From contig JACPJO010000005.1 of assembly GCA_016187485.1 (NCBI GenBank), forward strand, positions 7,499-71,498: a stretch of DNA of 64,000 nt. Reading direction: 5' to 3'. Of this stretch, positions 2,574 through 52,908 are shown piece by piece. Under the pieces are notes generated by a model. That model did not search any database. It was not told the DNA's origin and saw only the letters and a program-made list of their open reading frames with translations. Both the position numbers and the translations under genes were made by a program. How positions within the stretch are numbered: the first letter of the stretch is position 1; each line of letters opens with the position of its first letter. The stretch is from Candidatus Uhrbacteria bacterium. GTDB taxonomy: Bacteria > Patescibacteriota > Patescibacteriia > UBA9934 > UBA10169.

Positions 2574-2906
2574 TCAGGAAGACTCAGATAAATACTTACG
2601 GGCTTTAACGAATACCTTACGTTCAAGAGCCGTCAACGGGTCAATGCGCAACTCCCGAGCTATCAAAAAGAGAATATTGAAAACATCGGCGAGCTCGTCT
2701 TCAAGATGCTGCTCTGGAGAGCAAGTTTCTTCCCCCAGCTTTTTCATGCGGGACTTACCTTGACTTGAAAGCAGAGCCTCGGCTAATTCTCCCATCTCCT
2801 CCATCAGCTTGAGCAAAAGATACTCGCGATCCATCACGATCCCGTGTTTTTTCTTATAGCGTTCCGCGTTGGCCTCAATGAGACGCTGGACTTCTTGAAA
2901 TTCCAT
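2574..2906 (-). CDS. MazG-like nucleotide pyrophosphohydrolase
   Basis: KLMEEMGELAE...EDELADV motif of all-alpha NTP pyrophosphatases. Confidence 0.88.
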   Translation of the reverse strand: MEFQEVQRLIEANAERYKKKHGIVMDREYLLLKLMEEMGELAEALLSSQGKSRMKKLGEETCSPEQHLEDELADVFNILFLIARELRIDPLTALERKVFVKARKYLSESS

Positions 2907-2931
2907 AAGTTATTTCTTGACCATATCTTAC

Positions 2932-2959
2932 TTGACCCATTTGCGCTCCATGTTATCAT
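2932..2959 (+). promoter_or_regulatory. Sigma70-type promoter upstream of the tRNA-fragment/GIY-YIG/tRNA-Asn unit
   Basis: TTGACC-16 nt-TATCAT with extended -10 TG. Confidence 0.6.
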
Positions 2960-2984
2960 ACCCGCGCCCTTCACAGGCATACCT

Positions 2985-3036
2985 TCCGGGGTAGTCTCCG
3001 ACCCTACGGGTCGTAGACCCGGAGGGCTCAGCGGCA
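2985..3036 (+). repeat. Duplicated tRNA-Asn 5' end (20 nt) interrupted by a 32-nt hairpin insertion
   Basis: TCCGGGGTAG (2985-2994) + TCTCCGACCCTACGGGTCGTAGACCCGGAGGG + CTCAGCGGCA (3027-3036); the two flanks equal tRNA nt 3297-3316. Confidence 0.85.
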
Positions 3037-3048
3037 TGAGTCACTCGT

Positions 3049-3306
3049 ATGTTCTTTGTCTATCTGATACAAAGTGAAAGCGACCAAAGGTATTACATTG
3101 GGCAGACGCAAGATCTCACTGCCCGACTAGAGGAGCATAATAACGGAGAAGTCCCCTCGACATGTAATAGAGTCCCCTTTCGCTTGATCGGATACGAGAC
3201 CTACAAGACACGATCAAAAGCGCGCTGGCGTGAATACTCGTTGAAAAAGAGTGCTCACAGACGGAAGCAATTCATCGAACATGTAAGTAAAAATATTCCG
3301 GGGTAG
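3049..3306 (+). CDS. Small GIY-YIG nuclease (UPF0213/SLX1-like)
   Basis: FVYLIQS...YYIGQT..L..RL.EHN...E..LK; its stop codon lies inside the tRNA 5' end. Confidence 0.9.
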   Translation: MFFVYLIQSESDQRYYIGQTQDLTARLEEHNNGEVPSTCNRVPFRLIGYETYKTRSKARWREYSLKKSAHRRKQFIEHVSKNIPG

Positions 3307-3637
3307 CTCAGCGGCAGAGCAGTGGACTGTGACCAGGATCAAGCGATCCAAATAGCAGCTTCCTGCGGAGACGCAGGAATGAAAAGAGGGTGAACTGCTG
3401 GAAGCCGTCGCGTAAGACCAGCTAAGCTGGCCGAGCACGGTAATCAGCAGCCAAGCCCGCCGCATAGCTGAGGCAATGCAGGCGGGAAGGTTCAGAGACT
3501 ATCCGCAAGGAGTACTCCGACGATGTCGGAGGAAGCGCCCTCCGTCCTTCGGGACGATGATATAGTCCACCCCTTAAGGAAACTTAAGGATACGTGTAAT
3601 CCATTGGTCGTGGGTTCGATCCCCACCCCCGGAGCCA
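3297..3637 (+). tRNA. trnN: tRNA-Asn(GUU), intron-containing (exons 3297-3330 and 3597-3637)
   Basis: Joined exons fold as a cloverleaf: TCCGGGG/CCCCGGA acceptor, GCTC/GAGC D-stem, GTGGA-CTGT^TAA-TCCAT anticodon arm, GTGGG-TTCGATC-CCCAC T-arm, G discriminator, encoded CCA. Confidence 0.95.
3331..3596 (+). ncRNA. Group I self-splicing intron (266 nt, no ORF) at anticodon position 35/36
   Basis: 5' exon ends in U, intron ends in G; P3 GAGGGTG/CGCCCTC, P4 TGCTG/CAGCA, R TTCAGAGACTA (3491-3501), S GATGATATAGTCC (3556-3568), P9 CCTTAAG-GAAA-CTTAAGG. Confidence 0.93.
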
Positions 3638-3807
3638 CTAAATCCACTCAGTGCAAACTGGGTGGTTTTAGTTTGTTCGTGCCTTGCAAATAGTGCGGAA
3701 AAGCCATCTTTTGGTACACACTGAAACTCCCCGTCAGCAAAAATGAGTTCGGAAAACGCCTGCGTGACGATTTCTCGTTTTTCACTATTGGAGTGGACCC
3801 TGTACAC
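3638..3807 (-). pseudogene. C-terminal remnant of a probable large serine recombinase
   Basis: EKREIVTQAFSELIFADGEFQCVPKDGFSALF resembles the C-terminal segment of tRNA-targeting serine recombinases; no catalytic domain upstream; frame reads into the tRNA 3' end. Confidence 0.55.
3640..3670 (+). terminator. Hairpin terminator after tRNA-Asn
   Basis: CCACTCAG-TGCAAA-CTGGGTGG followed by TTTT. Confidence 0.7.
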
Positions 3808-3890: not shown

Positions 3891-4073
3891 CTATTTCGTC
3901 TCAATCGAATCCAAGAACTTATCAAACTCCTCCTTCGGAATCCGATAACCCTTGCCGAGTCTGTGTGCCTTGAGCTTTCCGGCCTCGATGTAACGGTAAA
4001 TGGTCATTTCGCTGACTCGTAGCTTCTCTGCCAGCTCAGAGACAAGATAGAAGTCTGGTATTTGGGTTGCCAT
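3891..4073 (-). CDS. HTH_17 / excisionase-like DNA-binding protein
   Basis: FYLVSELAEKLRVSEMTIYRYIEAGKLKAHRLGKGYRI. Confidence 0.88.
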   Translation of the reverse strand: MATQIPDFYLVSELAEKLRVSEMTIYRYIEAGKLKAHRLGKGYRIPKEEFDKFLDSIETK

Positions 4074-4076
4074 ACG

Positions 4077-5996
4077 TTAGAACAGCACGAGTGACTCCCC
4101 AAAAATCTGTGTGAGCTCCCATTTGCGAGTCGTATCAACGGCACGGTGTAGACCGATGAAACGAATATCTTTTTGACCCTCAAGAGCCTTGATGGTTGAT
4201 TCTTTCAAATCTGCATCAAGACAAACGAGTGCGGAACGGTCTCCGTCCGTAACTTTCCAAACCGCATTGTCTGCAAACTGGTCGAGCTTCTCTTTGTTCA
4301 TCGTGAGAGTGAAGCCCTGCTTGATGAGCATTTCGTATTGCAAGTCTGTCTCTTTGTTTTTTGGGTCAAAGAGTAGTTGCTGTTTTGCTCGCGCAAGATG
4401 TTCTTGAAATGCTTCAACGTTCTCTTCATCCGATTTTTCTGGGTCCGGTTGGTATGTGTTTTCAGGGAAGATGCTTGTTGTGAGCTTGAAGACCTTGAAT
4501 CCAGTATCAACGTCAGGCTTCTCAGAATGAATCCGTTCACCCGCGCGTTTTACACGCTCGATAGTGATATCGGATATTTTTTTATACCCAGCTTTGAATG
4601 CCTCGCTTTTTTCGTCGGTTGCTTCTGGAATCTGAACCATTACGGATTTTCTATTTCCACCGTCTTCTTGGTTGAGATCCATTACTGCATGTCCTGTAGT
4701 TCCAGAACCGGCAAAAAAATCAACGATAATGTCCTCATTTTTTGTGATGGTTTTCAGTATGACTTTGATGAGCTCAAGTGATTTTGGCGATGGGAACAGT
4801 TTGGCTTTAGTCTCAAATAAATCATTGAATACTGCTTGTCCTTTTTCAGTAAAATACTTCTTATCGTTCAAGATGCTTTTGAGCATTTTCTCAGCCCCGC
4901 TGGCATATGATTTGCGGTATATCTTCCATTGGCCATTTACTTGCTTTGCTAACAAAAACTCCGTTTCATTCTCGCTTTTTTCTTTTCCCCAAGCCCAACA
5001 CCCGTTGAAGCCGTCGTCCCAATCTGGATACACCGCAATGCCTTCCGGTGTTTTTCTCAAACTAATCTCTCCCGACTTATCGTCAACGAAAAATGGATAA
5101 TGAAGGTTCGGACGATTATGCTTACCAAACTCTCTATGTGTGTTACGGAGTTCGAGAAGACGATATTTTCCACCGTCGTCTTCCTCAGAGTATTCCGCTG
5201 CTATTTGCTCAGCATCTTTCTCAATCGCGAAATAGCCCTTAGGGAGCTGTGTTTTCGAATAACACAATACGTACTCATGATTTGTAGCAAAATATTTATC
5301 TTGCGAACGACCTTTTGGATTGCAGAGAACAGTTAGCTGTGCGACAAAGTTTTCTTCACCAAAAATCTCATCCATTAGTTTTCGAAGGTGGTGTATTTCG
5401 TTATCGTCAATAGAAATAAACACGGCTCCTTCATCTTTCAACATCATCTGCGCCAACAAGAGACGTGGCATCATCATATTGAGCCAGTTGGTGTGGTAGC
5501 GGCCGGCGCTCTCGGTGTTTGTGTCCATCTTTACACCGTCACGGAAGAGGCCGTTTTTCTCCCAGTATGCCTGCTTGCCCTCGGAGTAATCATCTGAATA
5601 GACAGAGTCATGACCCGTGTTGTAGGGAGGGTCAATGTAGATACACTTCACTTTGTTGTAGTACGCCTTCGAAAGAAGTTTTAGAACCTCCAGATTCTCC
5701 CCCTCAATAATCACGTTTTGTGTTTTATCAAAATCAACGCTGCGCTCCACGTCGGGCGCAAGGCGAGCTTTGCTCGGGGTGAAGGCATGCTTCTTAGCGT
5801 GCATCTTGCCCGGCCAGCGGAACTCAAACTTTTCGCCAAGGGAAACGTCAAAGTTGTGTGCGAGAGCATGTACCTCCTCTACATTCAGCTTTCCCTCATC
5901 GGTAAACAAATCAGGATAGAGCCGCTTTATTGCCTCAAGGCGCTCGAGGCGGTGGTCAGGGCTCTGTAATGCTGGGTTTTGTGGTTCGTGCGTCAT
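4077..5996 (-). CDS. mod: Type III R-M DNA methyltransferase (Mod)
   Basis: IEGENLEVLK, YIDPPYNTG (motif IV), DFFAGSGTTGHA (motif I) in beta-class order; adjacent Res. Confidence 0.95.
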   Translation of the reverse strand: MTHEPQNPALQSPDHRLERLEAIKRLYPDLFTDEGKLNVEEVHALAHNFDVSLGEKFEFRWPGKMHAKKHAFTPSKARLAPDVERSVDFDKTQNVIIEGENLEVLKLLSKAYYNKVKCIYIDPPYNTGHDSVYSDDYSEGKQAYWEKNGLFRDGVKMDTNTESAGRYHTNWLNMMMPRLLLAQMMLKDEGAVFISIDDNEIHHLRKLMDEIFGEENFVAQLTVLCNPKGRSQDKYFATNHEYVLCYSKTQLPKGYFAIEKDAEQIAAEYSEEDDGGKYRLLELRNTHREFGKHNRPNLHYPFFVDDKSGEISLRKTPEGIAVYPDWDDGFNGCWAWGKEKSENETEFLLAKQVNGQWKIYRKSYASGAEKMLKSILNDKKYFTEKGQAVFNDLFETKAKLFPSPKSLELIKVILKTITKNEDIIVDFFAGSGTTGHAVMDLNQEDGGNRKSVMVQIPEATDEKSEAFKAGYKKISDITIERVKRAGERIHSEKPDVDTGFKVFKLTTSIFPENTYQPDPEKSDEENVEAFQEHLARAKQQLLFDPKNKETDLQYEMLIKQGFTLTMNKEKLDQFADNAVWKVTDGDRSALVCLDADLKESTIKALEGQKDIRFIGLHRAVDTTRKWELTQIFGESLVLF

Positions 5997-6006
5997 ATAG
6001 GCGTAT

Positions 6007-8703
6007 TTAGGCGGTCACAAGGCGTTCTGCTTTTCGTTCTGGGCGTTTGCCTTCATCCGCAATCGGTGGGAAGGCATCGGTCATGTAGTATTCCTCCAGG
6101 CCAATGGCTTTGAAATGAGCTATGGCACATCTTATTTTGGCTCGTTCCTCATCGTCGAGAACCGGTTGATTTTCTTGGAAGCCCTTAGTCTCAACGACGA
6201 AGTGGTAGGTGGTAGCCTCCCCCTCATCAATCGACCGCTTTTCTATGACCAGCGCCCAATCGGGGTTGTAGGGTCCAACGGGGGTTGGGATTTTGTACCA
6301 GTCTGGGAGTTTGATAAAACACCGGACCCGATTCTCTCCATCAATGTCTTGCGCGAAGCGTTTCTCGATGGAGCTGTTGTAGACAACGTGGTCGTACACG
6401 CCTCCGCTCACCTTGATTGCGTCCTGGTACGTCTCGAATGCCTCTTTGAACTCATCCTTGCCGTAACGGTCGCTCTTTGGTTCGTAGCGCACACAACGCA
6501 CCATGGCGTGCTTGATGATACTCTTCATGGCTACGGATGCTTTGGAGAGAAACGCGACCGGATTTTGAGCTACTTTCTTTTGGTCGCGTACACCGTGAAG
6601 AATCTCTTCAATCGCTCCCATGGAGAGCCATGTCTCTTCTGCGAGCTCAGCGACGAGGTCGACTTTCGGAGCAGAGGCAACAGCGATATCTTTTATCTCT
6701 TCGCCTTTGTAGTCGTCGCTAAACGTGATGCCGTTTTGAGTATTTTGTTGCATGGAAGTAATGCGCGTGAGCGTGGCCTGCACGCGCGGGGGAGGAACAG
6801 AAAGACCATTGAGGGTTTTTACACAATCGTTCACGATGGTTTGTTCATCGAAATGAACGGTGTATTTGGTTTTGCGAGAAATAACCTCCCAGAGCCGGTC
6901 GAAATCTGAACTCTCAAAGACGGCTTTGTTGCGCTTCACTTTAGTGAGCGCTCGACGGGCATCTGTTAGTACCATCTCTTGCGCCTTATCTCCGTATTCA
7001 TCTGCGAGCTCATTTTGATATTGCGAAACAAACTCGGCGTAGCTTTGGTTGGGAATAACGGTCAGCAAGTTAACCGGAATACCACTCTCCATTTTCTCCG
7101 GGTCGCGTACACGGCTGCCGGTCTGGTCTACGCAAATACGAAGTCCGCGTCCAATCTCTTGACGCTTCTGAATCACGCTCTCTGTTTCGTTGAGGGTGCA
7201 TATGTTGAAGACGTTCGGGTTATCCCAACCAACTCCGAGTGCGGAGTGGGAGAACAAAAACTCGAGTGGTTCATCAACCGAAAGGAGTCTCTCTTTGTCG
7301 CGCATGATGAGGTCGAAAACGTCATCATTCTTTTGCATCGCGGCAACGCTGTCGGTCCATTCGCCCTTGCCGGTCTTGGCGAAGTATCCACCGTGCACAG
7401 CGTTCGTGTCACTCGGAAGTTTACCGTATTTTTTCTTATATTCCTCTGAGTAGCATTCGTTGAACAAACGACGAATCAAACCCTCCTCGTCAACGTAGTT
7501 AGCAACGCGGTCAATGAAAAAGAGTGACAACACTTTGACGCCAATCTCTGCCAACTGTTCCTTCTTTTTGAAATGTTGAGCAATCGTGAGCCGGATTTGT
7601 TCGCGGAAGATTGCCTCCTTGTCTTGCCCGTGACCGGCACCTTGCGCGAGCTCGGTTCCATTGGTGAATCGAATGCGGGCTACCTCATCACCCATATCCT
7701 TCCAGACGCGGTCGACAACCCAACCTTCGTAGGCGGGATTTTTGGTCTTCTTGCCGAGGTCATCATCCTTCGTCACTTTGATGGTCTTTTGTTTGAAACC
7801 TCCCCCAGCCAAACGAACCATAACGCCGATTTTTGCATGTGGCTGTTTACCAGCAGTAAAATCAACATCATGCACAACGATGTTTGTGGTGCTCTCTTTG
7901 TTTTCTTCATGGACAGACAGGACTTCTACCTGCTTCACGAGCCGCTTGTTGTACGCATCAAACGGCGTCAGCTGGTGGACGAGGTTCTTCACCACTTTGT
8001 GCGTGGCTGAGTAGCGCAACTTGAGGAGCGGATTGAGTCCCTCAAGACGCTTCACCATGTTGGGGGAGTCCATGCCCTCCTGTGGTTCGTCCATGATAAT
8101 AACCGGCTGAACCTGGCGAATGAGTTCAATAAGTTTTTCGCCGCCATTGCTATCGCGTTCCTGGTTGATGATACGGTCATCCGTATTGAACGCCTGCACG
8201 TTCATGACCATGATTTGCAAATCGGCAGACTGTGCGTAACCGCGAATCATTGTTGGCTTTTTGCTGTCGTAGGCAAAGGCACGGTGGTTGACGCCGTAGA
8301 TAGTTTTGAAATGGTCAGCGGCAATCTCAAGGGTCTTGAGTACACCCTCTTTCACCGCGATTGAGGGTACAAGAATAATAAACTTCGAAAGGCCGTAGGA
8401 TTTGTTGAGTTCAAAAATCGTGCGCAGGTAGACATATGTTTTACCTGTACCTGTTTCCATCTCAACGGAAAAATCGAGCTCATCAATCGGTCGGGCATCG
8501 AGAATGTTGTTGAGTTTTGCTACACGGTCGCGATTCTCTCGCACAGCTTCTGGTGCGATGCGAAGGTCATTGGCACAAACGCCGGCAAAGAGCCGGTCTT
8601 CCGCGCGAACGTAGGGCGCTCCAACAAACAGTTGAACCACCGAAGCGATAGCATCAAGCTGGTACTGGAGGTTGGCTTCAAAGTGGAGCTTTAGCATATT
8701 CAT
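6007..8703 (-). CDS. res: Type III restriction endonuclease (Res)
   Basis: METGTGKT, IMDEPQ, QEIGRGLR helicase motifs; C-terminal YNPDWA...VVETKG nuclease. Confidence 0.95.
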   Translation of the reverse strand: MNMLKLHFEANLQYQLDAIASVVQLFVGAPYVRAEDRLFAGVCANDLRIAPEAVRENRDRVAKLNNILDARPIDELDFSVEMETGTGKTYVYLRTIFELNKSYGLSKFIILVPSIAVKEGVLKTLEIAADHFKTIYGVNHRAFAYDSKKPTMIRGYAQSADLQIMVMNVQAFNTDDRIINQERDSNGGEKLIELIRQVQPVIIMDEPQEGMDSPNMVKRLEGLNPLLKLRYSATHKVVKNLVHQLTPFDAYNKRLVKQVEVLSVHEENKESTTNIVVHDVDFTAGKQPHAKIGVMVRLAGGGFKQKTIKVTKDDDLGKKTKNPAYEGWVVDRVWKDMGDEVARIRFTNGTELAQGAGHGQDKEAIFREQIRLTIAQHFKKKEQLAEIGVKVLSLFFIDRVANYVDEEGLIRRLFNECYSEEYKKKYGKLPSDTNAVHGGYFAKTGKGEWTDSVAAMQKNDDVFDLIMRDKERLLSVDEPLEFLFSHSALGVGWDNPNVFNICTLNETESVIQKRQEIGRGLRICVDQTGSRVRDPEKMESGIPVNLLTVIPNQSYAEFVSQYQNELADEYGDKAQEMVLTDARRALTKVKRNKAVFESSDFDRLWEVISRKTKYTVHFDEQTIVNDCVKTLNGLSVPPPRVQATLTRITSMQQNTQNGITFSDDYKGEEIKDIAVASAPKVDLVAELAEETWLSMGAIEEILHGVRDQKKVAQNPVAFLSKASVAMKSIIKHAMVRCVRYEPKSDRYGKDEFKEAFETYQDAIKVSGGVYDHVVYNSSIEKRFAQDIDGENRVRCFIKLPDWYKIPTPVGPYNPDWALVIEKRSIDEGEATTYHFVVETKGFQENQPVLDDEERAKIRCAIAHFKAIGLEEYYMTDAFPPIADEGKRPERKAERLVTA

Positions 8704-34535: not shown

Positions 34536-34613
34536 AAAAGTCGAAAGCGACCCCGTGGGGTCGCTAGGTCCTCCTTCGCCTTGATGGGCTACGGAGGATG
34601 GAGAGAAGGAACG
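34536..34613 (-). terminator. Conserved 3' module copy A
   Basis: CGTTCCTTCTCTC...CTAGC-GACCCC-AC-GGGGTC-GCTTTCGACTTTT on minus strand; 32 nt identical to 46746-46777. Confidence 0.85.
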
Positions 34614-43099: not shown

Positions 43100-43984
43100 A
43101 TGACTCTTTTCGATTCCCACTGCCACGTCCATTTTCGTGCTTATAAGGAGGACAGGGATGCTGTTATTAAGCGTGCAACCGAAGAGGGCGTTTTCATGCT
43201 TACCGTGGGGACGCAGGCGGATACGTCGCGTGAAGCGGTGCGTGTGGCTAACGCGCATGAAGGTGTGTGGGCGACGGTGGGGCTTCACCCCAATCACACG
43301 ACGGCACAAGAGTTTGTAGACGAGAGTGAGGAGGACACCATAGCGAAAGTCAAAACGCGCACAGAAGTTTTTGACGCGGAAATGTATCGTCCGCTTGCGC
43401 AAGATCCAAAGTGCGTGGCGATTGGGGAGTGCGGACTCGACTTTTATCGCATCCCCGAACATCTTGATCGAACGGACGTCATACGAACGCAAGAAGAGAT
43501 GCTGCGGCGGCAGTTTGATTTGGCGACCGAACTTGGGAAGCCCGTGGTCATCCATTGCCGCGACGCGCACAAAGAACAGGCAGATATAATTGAAGAGTAT
43601 GTCAAAAAGGGAAAGCTGGGTGCGCGGGGTGTGATCCATTGTTTTACGGGTACGAAGGAAGATGCCCTTCGGTATCTTGCGCTTGGGTTTTATATTTCGT
43701 TTTCGGGGGTCGTGACGTTTCCGCCACGTAAAGAGGGGTCTGACCCCTCCGGGGGTCAGACCCCTCTTGCGCCGCTTGCGCTTGTGGCGCGTGATATTCC
43801 GGAGAATCGAATTCTCATCGAAACTGACGCCCCCTATTTAGCGCCTATTCCCATGCGGGGTAAGCGCAATGAGCCGGCGTATGTGCGTCATACAGCAGAA
43901 TTTTTGGCAAAGTTGCGTGGAGTGACTTTGGAGGAGTTTGCAAAGGTGACAACAGAGAACACGAGGAGAGTATTTGGCATTTGA
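43100..43984 (+). CDS. tatD: TatD family DNase
   Basis: DSHCH, GLHP, AIGECGLDF, HCRDA, HCF, ETDAPYL. Confidence 0.95.
   Translation: MTLFDSHCHVHFRAYKEDRDAVIKRATEEGVFMLTVGTQADTSREAVRVANAHEGVWATVGLHPNHTTAQEFVDESEEDTIAKVKTRTEVFDAEMYRPLAQDPKCVAIGECGLDFYRIPEHLDRTDVIRTQEEMLRRQFDLATELGKPVVIHCRDAHKEQADIIEEYVKKGKLGARGVIHCFTGTKEDALRYLALGFYISFSGVVTFPPRKEGSDPSGGQTPLAPLALVARDIPENRILIETDAPYLAPIPMRGKRNEPAYVRHTAEFLAKLRGVTLEEFAKVTTENTRRVFGI
43731..43768. repeat. In-frame palindromic element in tatD
   Basis: Perfect 17-bp arms AAGAGGGGTCTGACCCC-TCCG-GGGGTCAGACCCCTCTT. Confidence 0.85.
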
Positions 43985-46731: not shown

Positions 46732-46777
46732 TTCGTTCTTTCTCTCTAGCGACCCCACGGGGTCGCTTTCGACTTTT
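46732..46777 (+). terminator. Conserved 3' module copy B
   Basis: TTCGTTCTTTCTCT-CTAGC-GACCCC-AC-GGGGTC-GCTTTCGACTTTT. Confidence 0.85.

Positions 46778-50573: not shown

Positions 50574-52908
<2,335 letters not shown>

Follow-up and report, generated by a model that had tools for sequence, protein, structure and literature searches.

A small GIY-YIG nuclease gene paired with a lineage-specific hairpin at a duplicated tRNA-Asn end in Candidatus Uhrbacteria

In a Candidatus Uhrbacteria genome of 878,746 bases, the gene for a small GIY-YIG nuclease, P0001, lies between a hairpin-interrupted copy of the front end of tRNA-Asn and the intact tRNA gene. This cassette is a hairpin-paired small nuclease element akin to NTS-ssnA-NTS. 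What is new here is that its 33-nt hairpin, H1, appears from sequence comparison to be tied to the nuclease lineage across unrelated sites, and to belong to that lineage and not to the tRNA.

Results

Organization of the locus

The window, i.e., the whole stretch of 64,000 nt that was analysed, carries the locus on its forward strand. A preliminary description had reported that the first 20 nt of tRNA-Asn occur twice and that a hairpin splits the upstream copy at 2985-3036. Comparison of the sequences at the locus confirmed this base for base: positions 2985-2994 (tRNA-Asn nt 1-10) are identical to 3297-3306, positions 3027-3036 (nt 11-20) are identical to 3307-3316, and a 32-nt insert at 2995-3026 splits the upstream copy between nt 10 and nt 11. 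H1 (2994-3026) comprises a G plus this insert, which itself ends in G, and replaces a single G of the tRNA. A 12-nt linker (3037-3048) leads up to the start codon of the nuclease gene (3049-3306), whose final three codons and stop overlap nt 1-10 of the intact tRNA, the TAG being nt 8-10. The intact tRNA-Asn(GTT) has its exon 1 at 3297-3330 and its exon 2, ending in CCA, at 3597-3637; the ORF-less group I intron in the anticodon (3331-3596) is a neighbour outside the cassette. In a scan of 2850-3750, one promoter-like site and one forward terminator-like site, a stem followed by a T run at 3644-3665, bracketed the unit. The former (2932-2959, TTGACC-16-TATCAT, 10/12, sigma-70-like by consensus match only) was the sole one found before the unit, in agreement with the earlier claim of one promoter, and is likely the host's original tRNA promoter. 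Since shuffled sequences give 0.6 promoter-like sites, the promoter evidence alone is weak.

With exon ends read from the sequence, the anticodon after removal of the intron is GTT, as in intron-less relatives. A splice shifted by one base would give tRNA-His and was ruled out by group I rules and by the intron-less relatives, which give Asn. ARAGORN found no tRNA in the window. The whole stretch was recovered in one near-identical contig in three of four public runs, all from one study that is possibly the source of the assembly. In the contigs of these four runs, which drop rare variants, no joint skipping the cassette (a strain-level empty allele or a circle) was observed.

The nuclease P0001

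The 85-aa ORF taking its TAG from the intact tRNA had been described as a GIY-YIG gene, and its product indeed matched Pfam GIY-YIG PF01541 (E 1.9e-13, 51 bits, cut-off 22.6). Among 13 sequences, Y16, G18, R26, H30 and E62 were invariant and Y5 nearly so; we take Y5, Y16, R26, H30 and E62 to be the catalytic Tyr, Tyr, Arg, His and Glu of GIY-YIG enzymes. The residues matching Y6, Y17 and E64 of SsnA are retained. In the predicted structure (pLDDT 93, pTM 0.81), the nuclease domain takes up the whole 85 aa, and the model has no separate DNA-binding region or extension. Its best fold matches were UPF0213, HIGLE and Slx1, at no more than 27% identity, with TM values of 0.62-0.68 for Slx1/HIGLE and of 0.35-0.44 for I-TevI (E 0.37-0.51). 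By sequence, the best match was UPF0213 (E 9.1e-7), and the score against TIGR01453 was 18.4 bits, below the cut-off of 56.05.

With a single domain of fewer than 150 aa, P0001 has the size of an Ssn nuclease. Within 500 nt, the SRM consensus was absent at P0001 and present at 1 of the 174 genes in the set, and at three of six plasmid homologs that served as controls. The SRM-flanked proteins, three in number, grouped with two close relatives in a branch of their own (SH-aLRT 95; 88 columns) apart from P0001, in a tree without N. meningitidis SsnA, and P0001 lacks the C-terminal extension of the SRM-flanked proteins. Because of the absent SRM, the separate branch and the absent extension, P0001 is not an Ssn member by the tests run, SsnA itself being outside the tree.

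Recurrence of the cassette and empty sites in relatives

One hundred candidate tRNA-Asn loci were collected from the order and the class, and 97 were kept; L006 and L130, which had no tRNA match, and L129, which was not clearly tRNA-Asn, were dropped. As the tRNA-Asn pattern matched 68 of 151 genomes, this sample leans to typical sequences. At 13 of the 97 loci (12 found by script, L021 by eye), a small GIY-YIG gene lay directly upstream of the tRNA, and before this gene stood a 5' piece of the tRNA into which one or two hairpins were inserted. Ten of the 97 had a 5' duplicate without an adjacent ORF, and 74, from other genera, were empty, with neither duplicate nor cassette. The empty allele that the preliminary description had proposed to look for in relatives was thus found at these 74 loci; none was found at strain level, nor in the same species or genus among the material examined. 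Its idea of a minimal cassette of hairpin and nuclease that keeps a working tRNA held up as well, as the arrangement recurs at the 13 tRNA-Asn loci and at two tRNA-Ser genes of this genome, C1:51821-52045 at tRNA-Ser(GCT) and C4:237-40, across a contig end, at tRNA-Ser(GGA).

The association of small GIY-YIG genes of CPR bacteria with a tRNA 5' duplicate was likewise borne out: by script, 34 of 44 such genes lying just before a tRNA had an upstream duplicate, three of which (L092, L041, L301) were mis-anchored and were left out of the leader comparison. Of 61 genomes in the order, 54 had a homolog, and the majority of the 30 best homolog loci adjoined a tRNA or tmRNA, before or behind it. The position of the insert in the tRNA copy ranged from about nt 10 to nt 36 among the cassettes compared, and some duplicates held two hairpins, or one nested in another. 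Tandem arrays were seen in L012, L120 and L142, with repeated 86-nt units of tRNA piece plus hairpin, a stack of two cassettes, and a GIY-YIG gene surrounded by multi-copy repeats of a tRNA 3' end. In this genome, a GIY-YIG gene at C3:29280-29035 lies behind a tRNA-like 3' end, probably of tmRNA, with a long hairpin spacer; this 3'-type layout recurs in relatives at tRNA-Asp, -Met, -Lys, -Trp and tmRNA.

Origin of the tRNA duplicate

The upstream pieces matched their own host's tRNA-Asn at 164 of 185 variable cells (105.7 expected), and 17 of 21 rare tRNA variants were common to piece and host as compared with 3.1 expected. This match argues for close donors or later conversion; it would be compatible with copying of host DNA, with gene conversion or with transfer between close kin, and gives little sign of a foreign donor. 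The duplication begins at tRNA nt 1, the leader in common being 1.5 nt long vs 1.1 nt for unrelated pairs (31 cassettes), and by a rough count about 22 of 34 cassettes have an ORF whose end coincides with or falls within the start of the tRNA. This geometry fits a cassette that would carry a tRNA front end and join inside the tRNA; a target duplication that was later trimmed is also possible.

Structure and distribution of H1

The 32-nt insert folded modestly better than shuffled sequences (z -1.66 as RNA, -2.71 as DNA with flanks); its reality is accepted because of recurrence and covariation. Besides an outer stem, H1 contains a 4-base arm three times over. Of 46 copies, 42 had complementary arms 1 and 2 and 43 had an arm 3 equal to arm 1, over four base combinations left unforced by the search pattern. 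At four loci having an uninterrupted copy in the same locus, H1 replaced a single G. The nearest proteins with DNA context (51-62% identity) were accompanied by H1 variants of 33-34 nt at other sites, and the search pattern was built from the variants beside P0001's nearest relatives.

With this pattern, 28 copies were found in 19 of 401 genomes of the phylum, at 1-4 copies per genome, and the reversed-pattern control gave none. Four copies adjoined a GIY-YIG gene, namely P0001 and three of 48-56% identity at tRNA-Pro or tRNA-Arg; the other 24 were solo, and no clade gene was detected in 15 of the 19 genomes. Long open frames held five of the 28 copies, besides one upstream of a cassette gene, and one in-frame copy lay in a class I tRNA synthetase. 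H1 stood either way round relative to the gene. Eight viral stretches held solo H1. An insertion of H1 into pre-existing hairpins was considered and rejected, as the rejoined sites were no more structured than the sequence around them (7 of 46 fell in the lowest tenth, and the median percentile was 0.43). At the tRNA-Arg(CCG) loci L266, L289, L327 and L328, the anticodon arm contains H1 in reverse orientation and is similar in sequence to H1 arm 1; the anticodon arm may possibly be the origin of the hairpin.

Pairing of the hairpin with a nuclease lineage

Among 174 distinct GIY-YIG genes from all loci collected, H1 lay beside nine of the 12 whose proteins scored at least 106 bits to alignment A1 and beside none of the other 162, a comparison that is partly circular in that seven of the nine proteins helped define the H1 pattern. 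The three best-scoring proteins without a whole H1 show partial copies. A less circular test came from six further clade members retrieved in two 400-genome profile searches, in one of which clade members were clearly set off by score: H1 was whole in G256, G566, G667 and G117 and partial in G490 and G121. The H1 clade had SH-aLRT support of 95 (24 rows, SRM-flanked outgroup) and 87 (22 rows). Its 16 members with context were found at tRNA-Asn (1), tRNA-Pro (3), tRNA-Arg (4), tRNA-Lys (1), duplicated pieces of protein genes (3), spacers between an Lcl_C or FGE-type gene and bAvd (2) and other intergenic sites (2). The two spacers, L131 900-1605 and L132 908-1581, hold H1 and the nuclease between the two genes, presumably at the position where a diversity-generating retroelement (DGR) keeps its hairpin. 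Three of the nearest proteins, known from their protein sequence only, end in IPG; as P0001 has the same ending, they are probably at tRNA-Asn too.

In 34 cassettes, the 6-mer Jaccard similarity of the inserts at 50% or more protein identity was 0.23 for the same tRNA type and 0.13 for different types, and at less than 40% identity it was 0.011 and 0.013, respectively; insert similarity followed protein identity (Mantel p 0.001; kin are not independent). This genome contains three cassettes with two hairpin types, different hairpins standing beside different nucleases. In the trees, several nuclease clades keep to one tRNA type; the 183-row nuclease tree was a quick build with 87 of 180 inner branches open. 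The trees also suggested that tRNA-Asn had been colonised several times, but one clade for all 15 tRNA-Asn proteins is not rejected by the AU test (p 0.19), and the idea was dropped. No clade member was found in viral contigs (three weak matches), which were searched for a phage vector, nor among named phages and plasmids, where all matches were below 60% identity.

The neighbouring group I intron

The ORF-less group I intron reported next door was recovered as Rfam RF00028 at 3338-3589 with 74.8 bits (gathering score 50). Its boundaries, read from the sequence, give 266 nt, the exon ending in U and the intron in G. A preprint on Patescibacteria tRNA group I introns reportedly covers this tRNA-Asn position. 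Rfam confirmed 14 of the 16 introns submitted. Of ten long or incompletely delimited same-site introns examined, eight contain an ORF of 101-110 aa with a weak HNH match (E 8.5e-6 to 0.04); such an HNH-like ORF lies near the intron 5' end in L004, L008, L009, L013, L061, L081, L090 and L103. On the simplest reading, the intron of the window would be one that lost its own endonuclease. The preprint on these tRNA introns mentioned above is listed among the references of PMC12641178.

Other palindromes and neighbours in the window

The suggestion that P0001 might be behind the other palindromes of the window did not survive, H1 being single-copy in the genome. At 51547-51576, a 30-nt twin hairpin adds 10 in-frame codons near the start of a gene that we take to be ATP synthase beta-like; its match is the hairpin in the tRNA-Ser cassettes of this genome, not H1. 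Two copies of one 20-nt GC-rich palindrome lie at 34546-34565 and 46748-46767, and a 38-nt near-perfect palindrome with a 17-bp stem, unrelated to H1, at 43731-43768. Directly behind tRNA-Asn, a type III restriction-modification pair and a small HTH_17 gene occupy 3891-8703, possibly an island at the 3' side of the tRNA.

Discussion

That close relatives carry the same hairpin at unrelated sites makes a selfish element recognising its own hairpin likely. The fuller proposal, drawn by analogy, is a selfish cassette whose nuclease would recognise its own lineage-specific 33-nt hairpin in ssDNA and nick beside it, and we consider the chances of this being correct evenly balanced. According to Chenal et al. 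2025 (PMC11893778), SsnA recognises an oriented hairpin, exclusively in ssDNA, and cleaves the strand a few nt upstream of it. Likewise, P0001 would bind H1 on an incoming or exposed single strand and would cut a few bases from it, inside the tRNA-like piece. Host recombination would join the cut end to the front of the recipient's tRNA gene, and the intact tRNA behind the ORF would act as a second, longer recombination arm. Promoter and leader would remain those of the recipient, and with a new front end from the cassette the tRNA would stay functional. In the weakest step of the proposal, the same nicking and host repair would seed solo hairpins as a by-product, and these would persist in intergenic DNA, in frame within genes or in the defunct copy of the tRNA. 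The nicking model leaves the first arrival at a new tRNA type or protein gene unexplained; GIY-YIG enzymes hydrolyse DNA, and we know of no strand-transfer step.

The abundance of solo H1 (24 of 28 copies in the 401 genomes have no adjacent nuclease), the duplicates with two or nested hairpins and the ten tRNA-Asn duplicates without an adjacent ORF would also fit a view of the hairpins as miniature mobile repeats in their own right, which another enzyme moves and which pile up in a dead tRNA duplicate, next to a nuclease gene that was acquired through ordinary recombination or duplication and may or may not be of use to the host. Passive landing, however, would give any local repeat family, whereas the hairpin type tracks the protein lineage across genomes and targets and, within one genome, different hairpins stand beside different nucleases; we regard this explanation as rather unlikely. 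A free-standing homing endonuclease that cuts empty tRNA-Asn, is copied in by gene conversion and has its occupied allele protected by the hairpin seems to us unlikely, too. Empty alleles are common (74 of 97), several clades keep to one tRNA type, and T4 SegB offers a precedent as a free-standing GIY-YIG enzyme in a tRNA cluster (PMC2988022). An unbroken copy of the same 20 nt nevertheless lies directly behind the ORF, and P0001 is one 85-aa domain without a DNA-binding extension and far from the I-TevI fold. Moreover, the insert positions vary from about nt 10 to nt 36 and one clade occupies tRNA-Asn, -Pro, -Arg and -Lys, protein genes and spacers, with no single target. The word "tRNA-targeting" in the preliminary description has to be amended: the closest relatives carry H1 at other tRNAs and at non-tRNA sites.

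Cassette and intron are adjacent here and again in L007, and the preliminary description had suggested that the cassette may mobilise the intron. In such collaborative homing, described for phages (PMC3984707), the nuclease would cut intron-less tRNA-Asn at the intron site and spread with the ORF-less intron. A same-site intron was present at 23 of the 97 tRNA-Asn loci and the cassette at 13, but both at only two, where 3.1 were expected (Fisher p 0.73; kin are not independent). Besides, the tRNA-Asn behind 11 of the 13 cassettes is intron-less and would be cut by such an enzyme, no group I intron was found with the four clade relatives checked at tRNA-Pro or tRNA-Arg, and eight of the ten same-site introns examined have their own weak-HNH ORF. 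The suggestion was given up, collaborative homing being highly improbable: the cassette is independent of the intron, which is a separate tenant. An assembly or chance artefact, for which the modest folding of the insert alone could be quoted, can practically be dismissed in view of the near-identical contigs in three runs, the recurrence of the layout in many genomes and the reversed-pattern control without a match in 401 genomes.

Beyond the selfish, hairpin-recognising cassette proposed for this locus, it is conceivable, if on balance doubtful, that an undescribed class of transposase-free mobile DNA exists, in which GIY-YIG nucleases of 80-90 aa, in many lineages that each have a 20-35 nt hairpin of their own, would rebuild the gene end they invade and write hairpins into new sites, including in frame in essential genes. 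In the literature searched, with most subscription papers outside the search, we found no description of the cassette. Such a class would be the long-missing source of the short palindromes of Patescibacteria and would offer a large natural collection of ssDNA nucleases whose targets can be read off. Should the pairing be functional, the target of each enzyme would be on display beside its gene, which would make transposase-free palindrome spread and site-specific ssDNA cutting beyond Ssn, the only family described for it, testable; this genome, with three cassettes and two hairpin types, is a natural swap system. The cassettes also break tRNA genes in ways that annotation tools miss.

Among known systems, the Ssn nucleases (SsnA of Neisseria meningitidis) resemble P0001 as single-domain GIY-YIG proteins of fewer than 100 aa, and in Ssn/NTS, as in the cassette, the gene is flanked by a lineage-specific hairpin of 20-50 nt that also occurs solo elsewhere; the authors of PMC11893778 propose a mobile-element origin. 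P0001 differs from them in the SRM motif, branch and C-terminal extension. The hairpin of the cassette lies inside a duplicated gene end, mostly of a tRNA, whereas the word "tRNA" occurs 0 times in the main text of PMC11893778. H1 has 1-4 copies per genome, as compared with hundreds for Ssn hairpins. The resemblance to T4 SegB lies in a GIY-YIG gene beside tRNA genes with a patchy, selfish distribution; SegB targets a tRNA intergenic region (PMC2988022), whereas P0001 consists of the nuclease domain alone and comes with a hairpin and a duplicated end of a tRNA. Phage collaborative homing (PMC3984707) shares with the locus a free-standing nuclease adjoining an ORF-less intron, but here the two co-occur no more often than expected, and an HNH-like ORF belongs to the intron lineage itself. 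The GIY-YIG domains of UPF0213 (BH0048, EF2693) and Slx1/HIGLE are the best fold matches of P0001, UPF0213 being the best by sequence. Slx1 and HIGLE are large eukaryotic repair enzymes, Seg enzymes are larger than P0001 and have DNA-binding parts, and for UPF0213 we know of no cassette layout. RAYTs are HUH transposases with a covalent tyrosine step, unlike a GIY-YIG hydrolase. Nevertheless, REP/RAYT and the Rickettsia palindromic elements resemble the cassette in that short palindromes are tied to a small enzyme gene and solo copies are tolerated in frame, and the REP analogy is drawn in PMC11893778, too.
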